Translations under genes and position numbers: made by a program | Shown: piece by piece, positions 1 through 22,777 of the stretch | How positions within the stretch are numbered: position 1 is the stretch's first letter | Layout: each line of letters opens with the position of its first letter | Source: an uncultured ANME-1 euryarchaeote | Lineage (GTDB): Archaea > Halobacteriota > Syntropharchaeia > Alkanophagales > Methanospirareceae | NCBI GenBank assembly: GCA_965195275.1 | Contig: CBDAFQ010000174.1 | Coordinates: 1 to 32,091 of the forward strand | Direction: 5' to 3' | Length of the DNA stretch: 32,091 nt | Notes under the pieces: model-generated | Told to the model about the DNA's origin: nothing | What the model saw: only the letters and a program-made list of their open reading frames with translations | The model's database searches: none

Positions 1-1180
<1,180 letters not shown>

Positions 1181-1333: not shown

Positions 1334-1458
1334 CATATTCTATCTTAACGATTTTTGCAACGCAGAATCTATATATAATGCGTGTCAAAAAAAAACGTTA
1401 CGTACGCCATTAGAGGAATAAGAAATAAATGGAGATGCGCAGGAGAGCGTCATGAAAA

Positions 1459-3918
1459 ATGTACCCTGACGGATTTGCTACGTTGAGAGCGAGTGAAAAA
1501 GAAGCGAATAAAAAGATAGTGAAAGTAGGCGATGTTGAAATAGATCTCGAGGAAGTGGTGCGAGACCTCCGGGGAGTGGAGGACATCGCGGCGGATATAA
1601 TCAAGGAGATGGGCGAAAGGCGGGTGAAACAATGGAAACCAAAATTGAATATCTTAGCACATGCGTCTGACATCGCAGAATGGGATAGTGTGCTTCTGAA
1701 CAGGTATCACCCCTTATACACTAGCATACCGAGTACCCCCACAATTATGGAAGAGTCAATCCAAGCGAAGCTGAGCTTGCAGGACACATGTAAAGGGCTG
1801 TTCAAGCAATTAACATTTGCGCGTGATTTGCTCGAATTCGCTATAAAAGTCTTCGGAAGGAATAGGGAGATTGACATCGGTAGTTCGATCACGTACCCCA
1901 CAATGAACACATCTATGCTAACGGGATTTTACACGAAGAATTTAGATGATATGGATAGAGCGTTATCATACGCAGAAGCGCAACTATCAGAGTTATTACT
2001 CGCCGCTTATTTCGGCTCTGAGAGCGTATTAGAGTTTGAGGAGAAGGCCCTGCATGCAGGCGCCCTTACCTTCCTTGTGATGGAGATAGCGGAAACTATA
2101 AAGATGTGCTGCTTTGAGTTCTTCAATGCTGGTAACCATCCGGCAACGGAATATTCCGATTCCCCACCTGTTGAGATTGAGGTTGGGATGGGTGCAGTTG
2201 ATAGAACAAAACCAGTTATAGTTTTCTTCGGCAATAATTTCCTGCCTGCATGGTTCGCCGTTGAGCACGTAAAGGGAAATGGATTAGAAGATGCGATAGA
2301 GATCTGTGGCGTGGGTGCGGTAGGGCATGACATACCGCGATTTTATAAAGGGGGGAAGGTTCTCACATCCGCAGTAAAGGCAAGGAAGGTGACAAGAGCG
2401 GGCATACCAGATGTAGTTGTTGCCAGTGAGACGTGTCTGGAATTTGATCTGGTGGCAGAAGCGAAGCGAGTAGATGCGAAAGTGGTTGCATATGGATATA
2501 AAGCGGGTAGTGGATTAGAAGACAGGTCTGATGATTCTGTGGATGATATACTCAAAGATATAATGGAGAATGACTTGCCAGGCGTGAGGATAACAATTCC
2601 GGAGAAAGCAGGCGAACTCGCTGTTAAATTAGCGATTGCTATAAAACAAAAAGGGAAGAGAAAAGAGAACTACTTGTTGGCTGAGCTAAAGAAAGAAGCA
2701 TCGAGATGTAACTCATGCGACATCTGTATCGAGGTATGTCCAAATAAGCAGGCAATAAGTAAGGCGATGGATGATGTGAACGCACTCGCAGCTATTTACG
2801 ATAACTGTATATTTTGCGGTCTGTGTGAAAGAGCATGCCCGGAAAGGGTTCCGATAATGGATTTGATTATGAGTGCGGCGGCTACAACAGGTAAGCTAAA
2901 AGGGGATAAATATCTTATGCGTGCTGGCAGGGGCCCTATGTCAGAGTTAGAGTGGCGGGACTTGACGTTTGGGATTATCCTCGGTGGTAACGGTCCCGGG
3001 ATGATTAATATTATAGGCTGTGGGAATTATCCGGGTTCAGAGCGCGAAGTAGCGGAAATAGCGCGATATTTTCTTGAACGGAATGCTCTTGTCACTGTTT
3101 CCGGATGCGTTGCCGCAGATGTTGCGAAATATTTCGATGAAGAAGGCGGTTTTTTATTCGAGCAATATATTGCGGCAGGCGTGCTAAAAGGGTTGGTGAA
3201 TTTTGGCGGGTGCACTGCTATCTCGCATGTGCCCGCTGCGATCTATCGCGGTGCGTTGGTCGGCAGTGGGTACACACCAAAGGCAAACTGGACGCAGGTT
3301 GCCGATTATCTCTATGCGCGATTGCCTGTAGTGGTGATAATGTGGGGTGCCGCGACAGAGGAGATGTACGCAGTCGCATCGGGACTCGTAAGGTCGGGCA
3401 TACCGGTAGTTATCGGTCCTTCCGGCTTCAAGTTCAAAAGATATTTTTTGGGTGATAAAGACGACAGGCGCAAGTGGTGGATGTATGACGGCGTTACGGG
3501 CGAGAAGAAAGAGGTTGAGCCTTGCCCTATGCACATGCTCGTGCCTGTGGATACGAAAGAGGAAGCAATAGCGATGTGTACTAAGTTATTGCACCGACCG
3601 CTTGCGTTGCGGGATCCACGACTTGCGAGTTTAGAAGCGGAGAACGAAGCATATAAAAAGTTCTTTGGCGAATATTCCGATGATTGGCATTTGTATGTGC
3701 GATCAGAGCAGGAATTGCATGTGATGCGGCGTGCGGAATTACTGAGGAAGTTAGGGCAGGAGCATGGCTGGGAGATAGAAGGTATGAAGATTAAGCGGGC
3801 AAGGCATAGGTCCGGGGAACTGATGGATATGCAAGAGTATAACAAAAGATACGGGATACAATTGGGCAGGTATTCGACACTCGTGCCGAGGTTGATAACG
3901 AGGAAGGGTATAGAATAG
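1459..3918 (+). CDS. cdhA: Divergent ACDS/CODH alpha subunit-like protein (CdhA-like), probably not a canonical CO dehydrogenase
   Basis: Collinear with CdhA: WDSVLLNRYHP, EVGMGAVDRTKP, AGIPDVVV, two CxxCxxCxxxCP motifs (E/F clusters), RAGRGP, IIGCGNYP, VSGC, GLVNFGGC, HGWEI. Lacks the N-terminal CxxCCxCxxGPC B/D motif. The true start could be slightly downstream. Confidence 0.9.
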   Translation: MYPDGFATLRASEKEANKKIVKVGDVEIDLEEVVRDLRGVEDIAADIIKEMGERRVKQWKPKLNILAHASDIAEWDSVLLNRYHPLYTSIPSTPTIMEESIQAKLSLQDTCKGLFKQLTFARDLLEFAIKVFGRNREIDIGSSITYPTMNTSMLTGFYTKNLDDMDRALSYAEAQLSELLLAAYFGSESVLEFEEKALHAGALTFLVMEIAETIKMCCFEFFNAGNHPATEYSDSPPVEIEVGMGAVDRTKPVIVFFGNNFLPAWFAVEHVKGNGLEDAIEICGVGAVGHDIPRFYKGGKVLTSAVKARKVTRAGIPDVVVASETCLEFDLVAEAKRVDAKVVAYGYKAGSGLEDRSDDSVDDILKDIMENDLPGVRITIPEKAGELAVKLAIAIKQKGKRKENYLLAELKKEASRCNSCDICIEVCPNKQAISKAMDDVNALAAIYDNCIFCGLCERACPERVPIMDLIMSAAATTGKLKGDKYLMRAGRGPMSELEWRDLTFGIILGGNGPGMINIIGCGNYPGSEREVAEIARYFLERNALVTVSGCVAADVAKYFDEEGGFLFEQYIAAGVLKGLVNFGGCTAISHVPAAIYRGALVGSGYTPKANWTQVADYLYARLPVVVIMWGAATEEMYAVASGLVRSGIPVVIGPSGFKFKRYFLGDKDDRRKWWMYDGVTGEKKEVEPCPMHMLVPVDTKEEAIAMCTKLLHRPLALRDPRLASLEAENEAYKKFFGEYSDDWHLYVRSEQELHVMRRAELLRKLGQEHGWEIEGMKIKRARHRSGELMDMQEYNKRYGIQLGRYSTLVPRLITRKGIE

Positions 3919-3922
3919 AAGG

Positions 3923-5380
3923 ATGACAAAAGAGAAGGTGACAGAAGAAGAGGACCAAGCGAAAGATAGGCAAGAGATATTGGATGCCTTACCCAAAGGT
4001 AAGGTTTATCACGTACCAACGAATCCGGACGATTTTTTCACTGGAATCTCCTATGACATATCACCACGGCAGTCCGGGCAGAGGGTGAGGAAGCATGACA
4101 TGCATTGCGAGTTAGGTGGTCCGAAGCACAGATACAGTAGTTACTTCTTCATCGAGGTGGTGAAAGGAGAGGACAAGATAGAAGATGGACGCGTAGAGGT
4201 GATAGGACCGGAGATAAAGGAAATAGAAGGGCAATCGCTGCCTTTTGGTTTCTGGATACGATATTATGGTAAGGAATTAACAGAAGATTATCTTGATTTG
4301 CTCACTCGATGGACGTATTTCGCATTGGAAGAAGGTGAAGGGTGGATGCTACTTAATACCCGCGACACAATATGGTTGCGATTGCACAAAAAAAAAGCAG
4401 ATAAACATGATTTTGAGCATCTTGGCCAAGCGATGATAAATCTCTGCAAGATACAGTTCCCTCTGGTAGAGAAGGCAGATGCGAAGATTCTGATAGCCAC
4501 TGATGAGTTAGGTGGGTCCGAACTCACAAAGGGAATAATAGATAACGTTTGCATGCCCTACTGGGAGCGAGTGGATAAGCGTGCGAGGGCACTTTCTGAC
4601 GATGACGCAGATACTTTTTTTGGCTGCACTATCTGCCAGACGTTCGCGCCGAGTCATGTATGCGCAGTTGCACCAGATAGACCGCCCTATTGCGGGATAA
4701 TCACATGGATAGGCGCGAAAGTAATGTGTGACCTTGACCCGTATGGATATATATTTGAGATGCCGAAGGGCGAATGCGTTGACCCCGAGGGCGGAGAATA
4801 CGCGGGCATAAATGAAAAGATCTATGAGAAGTCAAATAGGACTTACAAACGCGTGGTTATGTACTCTTCGATAACATATCCTCAGACGAATTGCGGATGT
4901 TTCGAAGCTGCCATATTCTATATTCCCGATGTTGATGGCTTGGGACTGGTAGACCGGAGATATGGAGGGGAAACGCCTTTGGGCTTGACCTTCTCTAAAC
5001 TCGCGGGGCTTATAAGTGGAGGACAGCAGAATCATGGATACTGTGGCATATCATTTAGAACGCCGAGATCGCGTAAATTTGTTCGTGCAGATGGCGGATG
5101 GAATCGTATAGTATGGATGCCAAAGGAATATAAGCAAATTCTTACGGAATTCATTCCCGCAGAGATGTTTGACAAAATAGCAACAGAGGAAGACTGCATA
5201 GACCCAGAAGGACTGAAGGAGTTTCTTAAGCGTGTACACCATCCTGTTGTAACATTGTGGAAGAATGGGGAAACGCCAGACCCTCTGAATTTACCCCCAC
5301 CTAATACGGATTGGGAACAAGAGGAAGAGAAAAAGGCACGAGAAAAAGGGAAGAAGGTATTAGCTATCCTTCCTCTTTAA
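3923..5380 (+). CDS. cdhC: Divergent ACDS beta subunit / acetyl-CoA synthase-like protein (CdhC-like)
   Basis: ELGGPK, GCTICQTFAPSHVC-x9-CG, TNCGCFE and ADGGWNRIVWMP; A-cluster Cys set intact. Starts 4 nt after the cdhA stop (operon). Confidence 0.92.
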   Translation: MTKEKVTEEEDQAKDRQEILDALPKGKVYHVPTNPDDFFTGISYDISPRQSGQRVRKHDMHCELGGPKHRYSSYFFIEVVKGEDKIEDGRVEVIGPEIKEIEGQSLPFGFWIRYYGKELTEDYLDLLTRWTYFALEEGEGWMLLNTRDTIWLRLHKKKADKHDFEHLGQAMINLCKIQFPLVEKADAKILIATDELGGSELTKGIIDNVCMPYWERVDKRARALSDDDADTFFGCTICQTFAPSHVCAVAPDRPPYCGIITWIGAKVMCDLDPYGYIFEMPKGECVDPEGGEYAGINEKIYEKSNRTYKRVVMYSSITYPQTNCGCFEAAIFYIPDVDGLGLVDRRYGGETPLGLTFSKLAGLISGGQQNHGYCGISFRTPRSRKFVRADGGWNRIVWMPKEYKQILTEFIPAEMFDKIATEEDCIDPEGLKEFLKRVHHPVVTLWKNGETPDPLNLPPPNTDWEQEEEKKAREKGKKVLAILPL

Positions 5381-5388
5381 AGAAGAAA

Positions 5389-6297
5389 TCAAACACCTCC
5401 AACGCCCAGGAATTTACCGTCTCGTGAGGGGCTAAGAACGTCTATGTTTAACCGCTTCACCAGTTCTTTATACCTATCTCGGATGGTAATCTCAGTTGTA
5501 CCAGCGACTTTTGCTATCTCCTTCTCCGTTCGATATTCGCCACTTAAAACAGTAGCAATGTATATTGCCGCCGCTGCAGTCCCTATTGGTCCCCAGCCCT
5601 TTGCCATCCCAGTCCCATCATCATCTTGCAGTATCACCATGGCTTTCTCCCTTATCTCCGCACTCAACCCAAGTTTAGAGCAGAAACGTGGGATGTAGCG
5701 TGCGGGATCAGCAGGAGCAAGCTTTATCTCTAATCGCCTTAAAAGGAAAATGTACGCTCTCCTTATCTTCTTTAATGGACTCCTTGAGACCTCTGCCATC
5801 TCTTTCAGTGTTCGTGGAACACCATACTGCCTGCAAGTAATATATAGCATTGCCGAAACTAACTCTTCTATACTCCGCCCCTTGATTAGGCCGCGCTTCA
5901 TTGCTTTCCTATATAATACTGATGTCGCCTCCTTGATGTTATTTGGCAGTCCAAGGGCACATGCCATCCTATCTATCTCAACGAGTGCAAAAGCAAGCGT
6001 CTTATCACTGGAATCTATACTTATCCCTCGTAATCGCCTCGTCCGTGCAGGTAACCCGGGCGTAGGTGTACCCAGCCCTTTGTCATGTATCCTATAACTC
6101 ATAGGAGGACCGGTTCTTATCCTTTTCGAGGCTTGCTCCTCGTCATATGACCGCCACTCGGGTCCAAGGTCCACGATATTCTCAGCGATCACTACCCCAC
6201 AATCAGCACAGTAAAGTTCCGCATGCCGAGAATCCGTTATTACATTTTTTGATCCGCATTCGGGGCATTTCCTTATTCTCTCAGAAATAACTGCCAT
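5389..6297 (-). CDS. tfb: Transcription initiation factor IIB (TFB), probably an alternative paralog
   Basis: Zn ribbon CPECGS...CADCG, GPEWR, HDKGL, LIKGRSIE, PRTLKE, C-terminal HTH TIRDRYKEL. ATG at 6297 preferred over TTG at 6306. Confidence 0.95.
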   Translation of the reverse strand: MAVISERIRKCPECGSKNVITDSRHAELYCADCGVVIAENIVDLGPEWRSYDEEQASKRIRTGPPMSYRIHDKGLGTPTPGLPARTRRLRGISIDSSDKTLAFALVEIDRMACALGLPNNIKEATSVLYRKAMKRGLIKGRSIEELVSAMLYITCRQYGVPRTLKEMAEVSRSPLKKIRRAYIFLLRRLEIKLAPADPARYIPRFCSKLGLSAEIREKAMVILQDDDGTGMAKGWGPIGTAAAAIYIATVLSGEYRTEKEIAKVAGTTEITIRDRYKELVKRLNIDVLSPSRDGKFLGVGGV

Positions 6298-6477
6298 CAC
6301 ACGCAAAAAGAAAAAAGGTTTACACTATCAGTCCCACAAAGTCATAAAAGCCAATGGGACAATAATCCTTTTCCTTTCTTCCCCTCCTCTTTTGTTATCA
6401 TAAATAGGTTCATCCATTTTATGTATCAACCTACTTTGTTTTCATAATATATAAAGAGATAGGTTATTATGCAGTAT

Positions 6478-12595: not shown

Positions 12596-12747
12596 CTTTT
12601 GATTGGGTTTAACGGTTGCTTACTCCCCGACAACTTACACTCGCTAACTCTTTTATCTTCACTTTCTTTATTTATTTATATGCACCCTTAATAAAAGATT
12701 TCTTTTGTAAAGCTTTCTTTATTAATGAACTGTTTGTGGTGATGGGA

Positions 12748-13884
12748 ATGGAATTTGAATTAAAAGAGAGTGAGAAGGCGTTTCAGCGCATATCGAGGCA
12801 GTTTGCAGAGACAGAGATAATGCCAAGAGCGGCCGAGATAGACAAAAAAGGGAAGTTCCCCCGAGATTTAGTGAAGAGAATGGCCGAGCTAAAACTTTAT
12901 GGTATTCCTTTTCCACGAGAATACGGCGGTGCAAGTGCTACGATGGCAAGCTATGTAGCTGTGGTCGAAGAGCTTTCAAGAGCAAGTGCAAGCATTGGTT
13001 TTCTAAGCTCTGCAGGGCTCATCACTATATTCCCCATCTACTACGCAGGTACAGAGGAGCAGAAACAGAAATATCTCAGGCCCCTGTGTGAAGGTACGAA
13101 GTTGGGTGCTTTCGCTTTAACCGAGCCCAGTGCAGGTTCCGATCCCACCGCTATTGATACAAATGCTGTTCATGAAGGTGATGAATATCTGCTGAACGGT
13201 AGAAAGGCGTATATCACGAATACCTCTGTTGCAGATATATACATAGTTTTTGCATATACTGATAAGGGCAAAAAAAGGGGCGGGATGAGTGCTTTCATCG
13301 TGGAGAAAGGGACAAAAGGCTTCTCTTTTTCGGGCATCGACGATATGCTGGGCATGCGTGGTTGTATTGTTGGCGGGTTGAAGTTCAATGATTGTAGAGT
13401 CCCCGAGGAGAACTTGCTTGGCAGCGAAGGCGACGGATTCAAAATAGCGATGGGTACTCTGGACAGAGATAGAATAGCAATGAGTAGCGTTGGGGTCGGC
13501 ATTACTCAAGCTTGCCTGGACATCTCCAAGAAGTATGCAAAAGAGCGAAGACAATCATCACAACCAATTGCTAATTTCCAGGCAGTTCAATTTATGCTCG
13601 CAGACATGGCGGTGGAAGTAGAAGCAGCGAGATTACTCACCTACAAAGCGGCTCATCTCGCGGATAAAGGCGAGAAGATCACAAAATATGCTTCAATTGC
13701 TAAGCTCTATGCCTCAGAAGTTGCGCAAAGAGCCGCTACAAACGCAGTGCAAATACATGGCGGTTATGGCTGCACGAAGGAATGCCCTGCGGAACGGTAT
13801 TATCGAGATGTGAAGATACTTAGCATTGCTGTTGGCACTTCGGAGATACAGAGACTGGTGATAGCGCGGGACGAGTTACTATGA
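12748..13884 (+). CDS. Acyl-CoA dehydrogenase family protein (atypical active site)
   Basis: GAFALTEPSAGSD, LNGRKAYITN, FIVEKGTKG, LGMRG, QIHGGYG, ERYYRD, GTSEIQRLVIAR. Start at ATG 12748 (or 12742) after GGTGA. Confidence 0.93.
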   Translation: MEFELKESEKAFQRISRQFAETEIMPRAAEIDKKGKFPRDLVKRMAELKLYGIPFPREYGGASATMASYVAVVEELSRASASIGFLSSAGLITIFPIYYAGTEEQKQKYLRPLCEGTKLGAFALTEPSAGSDPTAIDTNAVHEGDEYLLNGRKAYITNTSVADIYIVFAYTDKGKKRGGMSAFIVEKGTKGFSFSGIDDMLGMRGCIVGGLKFNDCRVPEENLLGSEGDGFKIAMGTLDRDRIAMSSVGVGITQACLDISKKYAKERRQSSQPIANFQAVQFMLADMAVEVEAARLLTYKAAHLADKGEKITKYASIAKLYASEVAQRAATNAVQIHGGYGCTKECPAERYYRDVKILSIAVGTSEIQRLVIARDELL

Positions 13885-20937: not shown

Positions 20938-21046
20938 TATAACTAAAATTAATTATTGACACAGATTAACACTGATTAACGCAGAAGAAATAAAATCCTT
21001 GTAAATCCATGTCCTAAATTAAATTTATTTATGGGTAGAAGTTATA
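20938..21046 (+). repeat. Dispersed repeat copy 4 (complete element with terminal inverted TATAACT...AGTTATA)
   Basis: Same core as the other copies; 7-bp perfect terminal inverted repeat. Confidence 0.85.
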
Positions 21047-21075
21047 GTTTAGATACAAACAAATATAAAATTAGA

Positions 21076-21921
21076 ATGTGCAGAGACAGACATGTGCTTG
21101 AAACCCTGGGTAAAGCGCGGGTGGTGATTGAGGACGGTAAGGTAGTAGAAGTTGGCAAACCACAGCTCAAATATTGCCCGTTGTGGGAAAAGATGCGTGG
21201 GATAACGGTGCTGAACGAGCGAGTGATAAAAGAGAACGTAGAATTCAGGATACGTGATTTTGGGTTGTGTACTGCGGATAGAGAACTGGAGTTAGAAGTT
21301 TTTGTTGGCTTTGGCACTTCCGAAACATTCATGACCGCACTTCGTAGAGGTCTGCTCGATGCCGCTGTAACAGTTTGTGAAGGTGCAGGCACAATAGTCA
21401 CTTCTAATCCCGCACTGGTGCAGGGGATAGGTGCAAGGTTAAGCGGTGTAATTGAGACCACCCCTATAGGAGGGATATTAAAGAAGGTGAAGGCGAAAGA
21501 GGGGGAGGTACTGGACCCGCCGAGAATAGACCAGAACGCGGGGTTGCAGATGGCTATTCGCAAGGGATACAAAAGAGTGGGCGTCACGGTAGCCACACTG
21601 GAAGACGCCCAAAAATGTAGAGCTACCAGTGAGCATGCAGTGATATTCGGTGTGCATCTCACGGGCATATCACGAAAAGATGCCGAGGAGTTCATTGAAA
21701 TCGCTGACCTGGTTACTGCATGTGCATCGGAGCCGATAAGAGCACTCGCAGATGAGAAGGCGCTTTTACAGGCCGGTACCGCGATCCCGATATTCGCGCT
21801 CACTACCGCGGGCAAGGAATTACTTTTAGAACGTGCGAAAGAGGTTGAAACGACATTGTTGCTGAGTACTATGCGGTTACCTGTGCTTCCCAAAGCGAGA
21901 CAACCTGAACCGATGATATAA
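21076..21921 (+). CDS. Methanogenesis marker protein 8 (DUF2099)
   Basis: HVLETLGKARVVIEDGKVVEVG.P...CP, EFRIRDFG, FVGFGTSE, VCEGAGT, LVQGIGARLSG, VHLTG, TACAS. ATG 21031 lies inside the repeat, so 21076 is preferred. Confidence 0.88.
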   Translation: MCRDRHVLETLGKARVVIEDGKVVEVGKPQLKYCPLWEKMRGITVLNERVIKENVEFRIRDFGLCTADRELELEVFVGFGTSETFMTALRRGLLDAAVTVCEGAGTIVTSNPALVQGIGARLSGVIETTPIGGILKKVKAKEGEVLDPPRIDQNAGLQMAIRKGYKRVGVTVATLEDAQKCRATSEHAVIFGVHLTGISRKDAEEFIEIADLVTACASEPIRALADEKALLQAGTAIPIFALTTAGKELLLERAKEVETTLLLSTMRLPVLPKARQPEPMI

Positions 21922-21973
21922 ATGCAAAATGTAAATAAAGTGTAAAATGCAAAAGGTAAGAAAACAAAAAGGA

Positions 21974-22777
21974 ATGAGAAGGACTGCAAGGTATGCGGCA
22001 ATATTAAATTTGATTTTGTTACTTCTGTTTTTCTATGGTTTTGTAACAGGAGCTTGTGCTGAAGAGCATAGGCAAAAAGGGCTAACGGACCTCGATTTTA
22101 ATGACGATGGGCATATCAACCAATTGGACCTGGACATATTGAAGTCGCACTTCAACGAACGATATAGGTGGTATGTACCCTGGGATCTGAATGCTGATTT
22201 TCGATGTGATCACGAGGATTTTTATTATTTCGCAGATCACGTCCCCTTAGATTATCGGTATCAGGTAGCGGCCAATGTATCTGTTTGGAACCTGTCCAAC
22301 TATACGATAGAGCGCGGCAACGAGCCGGCAATTATTCTTGATGAGGCTGTTTATCCTCTGAGTCTTGATCGAATTACGTCATGGGTGAAGCATTCAACAA
22401 GTCTTGAACCCCCGAAGGACGAGGGCGCGGTATGTGTCCATTATGCACGCGATCTCTGCCGGTTGGCGTACAAAAGTTTGGGGCCGAAGACGATAGCATG
22501 GGGCACTTCTAACGCCCACTCGTACGGAATGATATATACAGGAGGTAACTGGAGCGTTTTATCTAATTGGGCTATAATTGACCCGTTATGGGAATTATAC
22601 CGTTTTGAAGAATTCTCAAACACGTGGAACTATCATCATACAAAAACGATAAAAGTCCTGCTTGAGGAAGGGCGTTATGGCTATTGGGCCATTCATTTAG
22701 CCGTGGATTATCAGAATAATACCGTTTATGATCCTTATAAGGCGGAATACAGGATGCTGAATTTTAGGGAGAACTAA
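21974..22777 (+). CDS. Exported protein with dockerin/EF-hand-like repeat pair and a putative papain/transglutaminase-like Cys-His-Asp domain
   Basis: Signal-like hydrophobic stretch; DFNDDGHINQLDL and DLNADFRCDHEDF; VCVHYA...AHSYG...IIDP. Start 21947 or 21974. Confidence 0.65.
   Translation: MRRTARYAAILNLILLLLFFYGFVTGACAEEHRQKGLTDLDFNDDGHINQLDLDILKSHFNERYRWYVPWDLNADFRCDHEDFYYFADHVPLDYRYQVAANVSVWNLSNYTIERGNEPAIILDEAVYPLSLDRITSWVKHSTSLEPPKDEGAVCVHYARDLCRLAYKSLGPKTIAWGTSNAHSYGMIYTGGNWSVLSNWAIIDPLWELYRFEEFSNTWNYHHTKTIKVLLEEGRYGYWAIHLAVDYQNNTVYDPYKAEYRMLNFREN

Follow-up and report, generated by a model that had tools for sequence, protein, structure and literature searches.

The 32,091-nt stretch analyzed here, called the window, is the whole of contig C174 from the genome of an uncultured archaeon of anaerobic methanotrophic group 1 (ANME-1; 1.67 Mb in 186 contigs, 83% complete). 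It contains two adjacent genes from families of acetyl-CoA decarbonylase/synthase (ACDS), which encode a CdhA-like protein, A*, and a CdhC-like protein, C*; an epsilon-like protein of the same module is called B*. We propose that A* is a dead CO dehydrogenase (CODH) that acts as scaffold or lid for a live acetyl-CoA synthase (ACS), C*, and that the two would catalyze (de)carbonylation of acetyl-CoA without a CO2/CO step of their own, a reading that we consider about as likely as not. We infer the type of cluster in A*, the physical binding of the two proteins, the direction of the reaction, its substrate and its physiological role. The unit consists of:

1459-3918, plus strand: cdhA*, 819 amino acids, TIGR00314 (cdhA) match with 535.6 bits
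3919-3922, plus strand: spacer AAGG, 4 nt, from the TAG stop of cdhA* to the ATG of cdhC*
3923-5380, plus strand: cdhC*, 485 amino acids, ACS beta-type subunit, TIGR00316 (cdhC) match with 434.9 bits

Two open reading frames (ORFs) of such lengths and family scores are not a product of chance. Nevertheless, A* stays well below the equivalog cut-off of the cdhA family (535.6 vs 781.3 bits), and the alignment locates the differences from canonical CdhA at the active site:

2230-2238, plus strand: Gly-Asn-Asn replacing the canonical Gly-His-Asn (position of the C-cluster His), from the alignment
2305-2331, plus strand: segment in place of the canonical Cys-Cys motif (position of the C-cluster exo-iron Cys), from the alignment
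2434-3213, plus strand: retained cluster cysteines Cys326 (2434-2436), Cys521 (3019-3021), Cys550 (3106-3108) and Cys585 (3211-3213)

Residues were counted in 80 A*-type rows aligned with five canonical CdhA sequences; the 80 rows comprise A* of the window, 25 other ANME-1 proteins, Alkanophaga, 38 bacterial ORFs and 12 cluster representatives, and some genes occur twice among them because they were fetched by two routes. The canonical His, present in all five CdhA rows, is found in none of the A* rows, which have Asn (42), Asp (31) or another residue (7) at this position. Of the two columns of the Cys-Cys motif, one is Gly in 80/80 A* rows and the other is Ala, Ser, Pro or another residue, but never Cys. 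The fifth-Cys column (Cys in 5/5 canonical rows and in none of the 80 A* rows) is Ala in A* of the window, and the canonical Lys, again found in 5/5, is replaced by Glu in the window and retained in only 2 of the 80 rows. The columns of the His-rich helix read Gln, Phe and Asp in A* of the window; we take this helix to lie near the C-cluster and the Lys to be its acid/base residue. In contrast, the columns of Cys326, Cys521, Cys550 and Cys585 contain Cys in every A* row and every canonical row. In CODH-II of Carboxydothermus hydrogenoformans, the accessible text of PMC10502027 names six residues, one His and five Cys, as ligand set of the C-cluster; A* has four of the Cys and lacks the remainder. 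A gain of a replacement metal ligand by A* was considered and rejected, as no Cys or His is near-invariant among the aligned A* rows and at the same time missing from canonical CdhA. With no replacement ligand visible, the four-Cys site is read as an ordinary cubane and probably holds a plain [4Fe-4S] cluster.

The relay clusters and the termini of A* are altered as well:

1714-1758, plus strand: deleted B-cluster motif (CxxCxxxxC...C), residues 86-100, from the alignments
2707-2847, plus strand: ferredoxin-like insert, 2 x CxxCxxCxxxC, matched by Pfam Fer4 families
3781-3876, plus strand: A*-specific C-terminal insert, residues 775-806, predicted contact with C*

The B-cluster motif is present in 13 of 26 ANME-1 A* proteins and absent from all seven rows of the genus to which the window belongs. 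The additional Cys that flank this motif in canonical CdhA are missing from A*, and the D-specific Cys columns are occupied by other residues, bar a single Cys among the 80 rows at one of the two columns. The ferredoxin-like insert is complete in the window, with Cys417/420/423/427 and Cys450/453/456/460 as equivalents of the E and F clusters, and its Cys are retained in 26 of 27 archaeal rows. The C-terminal insert of about 30 residues, in which Gly786 and Tyr798 are near-invariant, has no counterpart in the canonical rows, and A* also has a conserved N-terminal region that differs from canonical CdhA.

C* scores above the cut-off of the cdhC family (434.9 vs 355.95 bits) and retains the complete A-cluster, for which the following features were derived from the alignment, together with an N-terminal addition:

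3923-4048, plus strand: C*-specific N-terminal extension, residues 1-42, with the motif LP.G.vy..Pt
4625-4693, plus strand: [4Fe-4S] cysteines of the A-cluster, Cys235, Cys238, Cys247 and Cys257
4892-4900, plus strand: Ni-binding Cys324-Gly325-Cys326 of the A-cluster

All ligands, the four Cys as well as the Cys-Gly-Cys motif, are invariant in 32/32 aligned members of the C* family, and the motif of the N-terminal extension is conserved across the same 32 proteins. The TIGR00316 match starts at residue 40 and ends at position 404-410 of 460, and the tail of C* is unlike that of the canonical CdhC of the same genome. Pfam recognizes only the CdhC and ACS_CODH_B_C domains and no A1/prismane domain, and the C-terminal disordered extension described for the archaeal CdhC type in the available part of PMC13370988 is lacking. 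The residue pattern, with His, Cys, Lys and the B- and D-cluster Cys gone from one protein and the A-cluster complete in the other, thus agrees with the original prediction, made from this stretch before the present analysis, of an apparently inactive alpha subunit paired with an apparently active A-cluster subunit.

In seven bacterial C* genes the Cys-Gly-Cys motif is coded TGA-GGN-TGA within a frame that is otherwise open and conserved:

L067:7163-7171, TGA-GGN-TGA site
L071:9897-9905, TGA-GGN-TGA site
L072:4178-4186, TGA-GGN-TGA site
L074:4856-4864, TGA-GGN-TGA site
L075:4602-4610, TGA-GGN-TGA site
L118:2865-2873, TGA-GGN-TGA site
L127:2745-2753, TGA-GGN-TGA site

The carriers are metagenome-assembled genomes (MAGs), one with the label Chloroflexi and six with the labels Deltaproteobacteria, Desulfobacterales or Pseudomonadota. 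SelB was detected above its family cut-off in four of five carrier genomes, and selB shares a contig with the module of L067. The stretch shortly 3' of the motif is near-identical in all seven genes and could form a short hairpin, which is a candidate selenocysteine insertion sequence; folds of 75 nt from the first TGA had minimum-free-energy z-scores of -0.4 to -2.1. The motif is likely to be read as selenocysteine (Sec)-Gly-Sec, and such a nickel site, if true, argues for catalytic use of the A-cluster in this family. Two reviews of prokaryotic selenoproteins have, in their accessible parts, only the gamma-subunit/HgcA homologue as CODH/ACS entry and no ACS beta subunit, so that as far as mention could be found in the literature this would be the first Se-ligated A-cluster.

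The genome also contains an ordinary ACDS. A genome-wide profile search detected a second cdhA on contig C46 (1235.6 bits) and a second cdhC on contig C141 (676.4 bits), to which A* and C* are 36% and 42% identical. The canonical cdhA is followed on C46 by the only cdhB of the genome, and the single cdhDE, a cdhD fragment and cdhE, is located on contig C70; there is thus one canonical set, dispersed over three contigs as cdhAB, cdhC and cdhDE. The canonical cdhC stands alone on C141, between genes that resemble ornithine carbamoyltransferase and polyprenyl synthase when their translations are read by eye. About 2.5 kb 3' of it, an ORF of 371 aa (G000:C141:8014-9129) contains two 4Fe-4S motifs and by eye resembles an FrhB-type F420-reducing subunit; clustering of FrhB paralogues with CODH genes in ANME is described in the main text of Chadwick et al. 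(2022). A* and C* therefore form a second, divergent set and are not the sole cdhA and cdhC copies, which settles a search that the original prediction had proposed. Its argument from missing cdhB, cdhD and cdhE neighbors is weak, because the ordinary cdh genes of this genome are scattered, too. That the canonical genes are dispersed, and that A* and C* are clear homologues of CdhA and CdhC, would fit a redundant ACDS isoenzyme which works with the dispersed cdhB, cdhD and cdhE products and performs the standard reaction including CO2/CO conversion. However, we regard this as extremely unlikely, as A* lacks the His, Cys and Lys found in 5/5 canonical CdhA as well as the B and D clusters and falls under the cdhA equivalog cut-off, and as both proteins have specific terminal additions while C* is devoid of the canonical C-terminal extension.

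Among 68 species genomes of the order, A* (at least 61% identity) was found in 30, C* (at least 68%) in 31 and both in 29, and the three genomes with A* or C* alone are 59-75% complete. Neither gene was found in 36 of the 68 genomes, ten of them at least 90% complete, so that the module is accessory, and the remaining 11 genomes of the class gave canonical-type matches only. A pattern scan of species genomes returned 66 loci. Apart from those in Methanophagales and Candidatus Alkanophaga, many are in MAGs that bear the label Deltaproteobacteria, Desulfobacterales, Thermodesulfobacteriota, Chloroflexota or Dehalococcoidia. The family is nevertheless small, with 61 A* matches at E <= 1e-30 among 1.84 billion representatives clustered at 50% identity. 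In quick maximum-likelihood trees (LG+G4, midpoint-drawn, with support only from the Shimodaira-Hasegawa-like approximate likelihood ratio test, SH-aLRT), A* separated from canonical CdhA with a support of 99 and C* from canonical CdhC with 100, and ANME-1 and Alkanophaga formed one clade in both trees. The expectation that the two proteins form distinct, jointly evolving clades is thereby supported. Neither the His nor the Cys is found in any of the 12 representative rows, including four that the midpoint places on the canonical side, which implies that the family boundary in the tree needs a rooted analysis.

Both genes are under purifying constraint in the genus, with ratios of nonsynonymous to synonymous substitution rates (dN/dS) of 0.12-0.16 for A* and 0.11-0.21 for C* against congeners, and at these values neither is a pseudogene. 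Together with the conservation of the pair in 29 of 68 genomes, the low dN/dS disposes of the objection that the pair might not be conserved. Loss of parts has nevertheless occurred repeatedly in ANME-1. The B-cluster deletions differ between the genus of the window, a second genus with one relative, and a third lineage, in which the ferredoxin insert is missing as well. Retention of the motif in the sister genus of the window's genus implies no fewer than three separate losses. In a near-complete, five-contig ANME-1 genome, A* (L035, G007:C1:183993-186191) lacks the B-cluster motif and the whole ferredoxin insert but keeps the four Cys, and C* is encoded about 670 kb away. Relay clusters were thus lost repeatedly and the four Cys never, which favors a structural over a redox role of A*. 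It is more likely that A*, kept under selection with C* despite loss of the relay, is needed for itself and not for transfer.

The same losses could mark a remnant that is decaying or has no catalytic function, or else a pair with a regulatory or sensory role, in each case without metabolic flux of its own. A regulator or sensor role has been proposed for lone CdhA isoforms in Methanosarcina. As 36 of the order's 68 genomes, ten of them at least 90% complete, do without the module, it is dispensable for methane oxidation; B* and the B cluster disappeared stepwise, as did the ferredoxin insert in one lineage, and three A* matches bear one in-frame stop each. However, dN/dS of 0.1-0.2 in both genes, invariant A-cluster ligands and invariant A* Cys, the strict co-occurrence of A* and C*, and RNA-library contigs that span both genes speak against this explanation, which we judge highly improbable.

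The arrangement of the module differs between lineages. A* and C* adjoin each other in bacteria and in Alkanophaga, and in Alkanophaga and Desulfobacterota the layout is A*-B*-C*, where B* is a protein of 157 aa that matches cdhB faintly (E 1e-4, 22.3 bits vs a cut-off of 101.2). Chloroflexota often have C*-A*-C*-A* in tandem, and its two copies form two subclades in both trees; all 15 adjacent Chloroflexota C*-A* pairs that are present in both trees fall in matching subclades, indicating co-duplication of A* and C*. Within the genus of the window, the two genes are adjacent in five of the seven genomes that have both, and in three ANME-1 genomes they lie on the same contig 4-12 kb apart. B* occurs in 12 genomes of the order and adjoins C* in one genus, but had no match in any of eight genomes of the window's genus, and a tblastn search of the window's genome (83% complete) with B* and with the conserved proteins of clusters 8 and 13, mentioned below, found none. 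Judged from these comparisons, the A*-4 nt-C* layout of the window would correspond to the A*-B*-C* layout of Alkanophaga minus B*. Of the two-gene module originally predicted, the pair is therefore real, but it represents a reduced form of the A*-B*-C* module seen in Alkanophaga and many bacteria.

The neighbors of the bacterial modules are an argument for the alternative that A* is still an enzyme, with a four-Cys site that might hold a [Ni-3Fe-4S] or oxo-bridged cluster and perform other chemistry as part of an alternative carbonyl branch, for instance binding and handover of exogenous CO or production of the carbonyl from formate via an FwdBD-type module. Bacterial module neighbors include CooC-like, chelatase-like AAA+/VWA, FwdB/FwdD-like and RnfB-like Fe-S genes. 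In four Chloroflexota MAG loci (L100, L104, L120, L128), the tandem C*-A*-C*-A* is flanked by an FwdB equivalog (338.3 bits vs a cut-off of 327.8), by a protein resembling FwdD and by an Fe-S protein whose match to the CdhE N-terminus covers its first 50 residues. Other loci additionally contain CooC-like genes, chelatase-like AAA+/VWA genes, and genes for two conserved proteins (clusters 8 and 13), neither of which has a Pfam or NCBIfam match. Linkage to the FwdB, FwdD-like and CdhE-N-terminal Fe-S proteins in Chloroflexota and some Desulfobacterota, CooC-like and chelatase-like genes that suggest metal insertion, and the persistence of the four Cys in 80/80 rows while other clusters were lost would all fit an enzyme. 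That a CODH scaffold can hold a different, non-Ni cluster has a precedent in CODH-V of C. hydrogenoformans, which like the hybrid-cluster proteins combines the CODH fold with changed ligands; CODH-V does not oxidize CO, according to the accessible parts of PMC13240472 and PMC10502027. However, CODH-V keeps the His and has only a Cys to Glu exchange, whereas A* loses both without a Glu or His substitute, is of CdhA type and is paired with an ACS. Moreover, A* has no conserved substitute ligand, the unit of the ANME-1 window contains no Fwd-like, CooC or chelatase gene, and the losses of the B cluster and, in one case, of the ferredoxin insert in ANME-1 are odd for a redox enzyme. We therefore consider an enzymatic A* rather unlikely.

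Candidatus Alkanophaga has the closest copies outside ANME-1, with 61-62% identity for A* and 68-69% for C*, and its A*-B*-C* cluster is followed by a thiolase and a BbsA-like gene. One Alkanophaga genome, which also has a close A*-B*-C* cluster and canonical copies, contains in addition a second, remoter set with an A*-like (41%), a weak B*-like and a C*-like (46%) gene (G001:C44:6161-10514). The Alkanophaga copies and their neighbors could indicate that the pair (de)carbonylates C3-C4 acyl-CoAs or uses other alkyl carriers as a relic of alkane-oxidizing ancestors, and the accessible part of Zehnle et al. (2023; PMC10322722) describes an unclear fate of propionyl-CoA in Alkanophaga and expression of multiple ACDS. 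We consider a different acyl substrate improbable, however, since the family occurs widely in Chloroflexota and Desulfobacterota, only canonical-type matches came from the remaining 11 class genomes, the ANME-1 that bear the module are methane oxidizers, and no residue-level sign of an altered acyl pocket was obtained. For the same reason the suggestion that the module was inherited from alkane-oxidizing ancestors is only weakly backed: its occurrence in Alkanophaga speaks for it, whereas the canonical-type class relatives and the spread in Chloroflexota and Desulfobacterota speak against it.

How an inactive CdhA-like protein could serve C* is suggested by the canonical complex. In the ACDS of Methanosarcina acetivorans, CdhC has no A1 domain, and the CO alcove and the gating of the tunnel come from Rossmann-fold 2 of CdhA, according to the main text of PMC13370988; an ACS of the CdhC type thus needs a CdhA-fold partner even when no CO is produced. 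The complex was predicted for A* 470-819 and C* 1-485 with custom alignments. The interface score ipSAE was 0.67 (0.68, 0.67 and 0.64 in the runs) with 0.00 for the best control, and its mark was attained by 58 of 80 solved complexes and by 2 of 110 mismatched pairs; the runs agreed in at least 65% of contacts, and the partner had a predicted local distance difference test (pLDDT) score of at least 84. In the predicted interface, A* 509-513 faces C* 236-240 beside the A-cluster Cys, and residues 775-777, 791-792, 795 and 801-803 of the C-terminal insert of A* as well as C* 35-52 at the end of the N-terminal extension would take part. As in the canonical complex described in the available text of PMC13370988, the C-terminal domain and Rossmann-fold 2 of CdhA are predicted to face the ACS domains. 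The canonical CdhA-CdhC complex has been solved (9c0s), so that the prediction may be a memory of that structure; the model shows likeness to the solved complex, not binding.

We envisage that C* is the subunit with the Ni-Ni-[4Fe-4S] A-cluster which would make or cleave the acetyl C-C and C-S bonds. A*, which keeps the CdhA fold, the four-Cys site and the two-cluster ferredoxin insert but apparently neither the CO2/CO ligands nor the acid/base residues, would dock onto C* and close its active site as Rossmann-fold 2 of CdhA does in canonical ACDS. A* might perhaps be a short electron wire, but would be neither source nor sink of CO; CO would be exchanged with the canonical CdhAB or a free CO pool, and methyl groups would come from the single CdhDE of the genome. 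A bolder version, which we put forward tentatively and hold to be doubtful, is that A*C* (with or without B*) represents a third architectural class of ACS, the other two being bacterial AcsB, which has an A1 domain, and archaeal CdhC with transient docking on an active CdhA. It would be a stand-alone ACS for which a permanent pseudoenzyme CODH would form the CO alcove, and which would use free or externally supplied CO, or release CO, without dependence on CO2 reduction. Both Ni ligands may be Sec in some Desulfobacterota and one Chloroflexota MAG, and ANME-1 might gain from it a route of carbon assimilation or CO salvage apart from the canonical ACDS. The idea of a permanent assembly of an ACS with a CODH fold recalls bacterial CODH/ACS (AcsA2-AcsB2), where the A1 domain anchors ACS to CODH, and the A*- and C*-specific additions fall within the predicted interface. 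In contrast to AcsB, C* has no A1/prismane domain, and its partner is CdhA-like and predicted to be inactive.

Several points weigh against A* as an inactive scaffold. The eight ferredoxin Cys in A* of the window and a B cluster in 37 of 38 bacterial rows are odd for a mere cap, the four-Cys site could hold a non-cubane cluster or have acquired a new activity, and the bacterial neighbors described above give hints of a redox function that is fuller than that of a passive scaffold. The correspondence of the A* columns with His261, Cys295, Cys333, Cys446, Cys476, Cys526 and Lys563 of CODH-II, of which we take His261 and Cys295 to bind the exo-iron and Cys526 to bind Ni, is our assumption and not an alignment result; CooS-type matches from a PDB sequence search aligned in pieces only. 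In most ANME-1 genera the genes for A* and C* do not adjoin, and none of the loci examined links a corrinoid protein gene to the module. A literature search found no biochemistry on any member of the A*/C* family. Contigs from RNA libraries may derive from DNA, and as one of them runs into a convergent gene, they are no proof of transcription.

The immediate surroundings of the pair in the window are as follows:

1-1180, minus strand: 16S rRNA gene, 5' 1176 of 1478 model positions, Rfam RF01959, 1156.8 bits
1370-1379, plus strand: TATA-like box, candidate promoter of the A*-C* unit, reading TATATATAAT
5389-6306, minus strand: tfb (TFIIB/Tfb), Pfam PF00382 and PF08271

The archaeal 16S rRNA gene, truncated by the start of the window and divergent from cdhA*, forms the left boundary of the unit, and the convergent tfb, whose stop is 8 nt from that of cdhC*, the right one. 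The ORFs confirm the predicted layout, in which two genes with 4 nt between them are bounded by an rRNA gene in divergent and tfb in convergent orientation, and ORF and family scans detected no cdhB, cooC, cdhD or cdhE between the 16S rRNA gene and tfb, so that these genes are outside the unit as had been stated, and the locus does not have the five-subunit ACDS operon with cdhB, cdhD, cdhE and cooC in one unit. RNA-library contigs from four runs of two studies span both genes at about 95-96% identity, one of them, with 4752 nt, covering 1387-6126 and thus reaching into tfb. Contigs start at 1387 (runs X5 and X6) and 1399 (X7), just 3' of the TATA-like box, and positions 1303-1386 had little or no cover in the four runs; box and contig starts together are a weak hint of a promoter. 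The spacer has a strain variant: in a contig of run X4, position 3921 is followed by 8 additional letters that duplicate the beginning of cdhC*. In the further sequencing runs X1-X3 and X8-X18, shares of words were 0.00-0.34, and no habitat is inferred from them. Inside the 16S rRNA gene, contigs of two runs omit 78-80 nt at 347-428 (minus strand), which could be a strain length difference in a variable region or an excised piece. Further along the window, a gene (12616-13884, plus strand) for an acyl-CoA dehydrogenase with the full set of three Pfam ACAD domains is found in this genome of a methane oxidizer among housekeeping neighbors (eIF2-gamma, NadA, RadA, thermosome, Lon), and two overlapping ORFs of 319 and 276 aa (21042-22001, minus strand, and 21947-22777, plus strand) have no Pfam match at E <= 1e-5.

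Among known systems, archaeal ACDS (CdhA2B2 and CdhC; 8riu, 9c0q-9c0t, 3cf4) has the same folds and domain order as A* and C*, with 450 bits for A* against 8riu_A over residues 119-774 and 334 bits for C* against 9c0s_E, and shares the ferredoxin insert and the A-cluster ligands. It differs in that A* lacks the C-cluster His, Cys and Lys and the D-cluster Cys and, in this genus, the B cluster; A* has its C-terminal insert and C* its N-terminal extension but no disordered C-terminal tail; and the module is without an epsilon subunit of its own in this genome and unlinked to cdhDE. A preprint of July 2026 (bioRxiv 10.64898/2026.07.07.736967, PMC13370988) describes an ACS clade with a structured N-terminal extension and no disordered C-terminal tail in Chloroflexota, Thermodesulfobacteriota, Myxococcota and archaea, the partner CODHs of which form an early-branching CdhA clade. 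C* corresponds to this description in its N-terminal extension and in lacking a prismane domain and a C-terminal tail, and A* in being a deep-branching CdhA partner encoded adjacent to C* in loci of Chloroflexota, Thermodesulfobacteriota and archaea. The taxa also match, except that none of our loci is labelled Myxococcota. A* and C* most likely belong to this clade, as compared by description and not by tree files. The main text of the preprint calls the partners CODHs and contains nothing on lost C-cluster ligands, B*, ANME-1, Sec variants or function.

Close relatives are found in public databases as 'CODH/ACS like protein, alpha subunit [uncultured archaeon]'. For Alkanophaga, the accessible part of Zehnle et al. 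(2023; PMC10322722) counts 'multiple ACDS' without differentiating them, and Chadwick et al. (2022), the only paper returned by literature searches for an ANME-1 cdhA/cdhC paralog, describe in the main text clusters of CODH alpha/epsilon genes with FrhB7, but not the A*/C* pair. A marine CODH survey of 2026 dropped every sequence lacking the C-cluster Cys (PMC13240472, available part), and with such a filter proteins of the A* type fall out of surveys. As far as our searches go, a dead CODH paired with a live ACS and the series of reductions in ANME-1 have not been described in the literature. The system is thus new in its interpretation, whereas the clade itself already appears in the ACS phylogeny of PMC13370988.

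CODH/ACS is among the oldest carbon-fixing machines, and the CO that its C-cluster produces reaches the A-cluster by channelling. This logic is broken by a conserved pair of proteins under selection, known from ANME-1, Alkanophaga, Chloroflexota and Desulfobacterota, in which the CO-using site is intact and the CO-making site is gone. If our reading is true, some of the 'second ACDS copies' in metabolic reconstructions of methane and alkane oxidizers and of subsurface bacteria are not CO dehydrogenases. The pair would then offer a way to study an ACS without a CODH of its own, supplied by free CO, releasing CO, or using another carbonyl source or another acyl group, and the ANME-1 lineages, which differ in the presence of B*, of the B cluster and of the ferredoxin insert, would constitute a natural deletion series.

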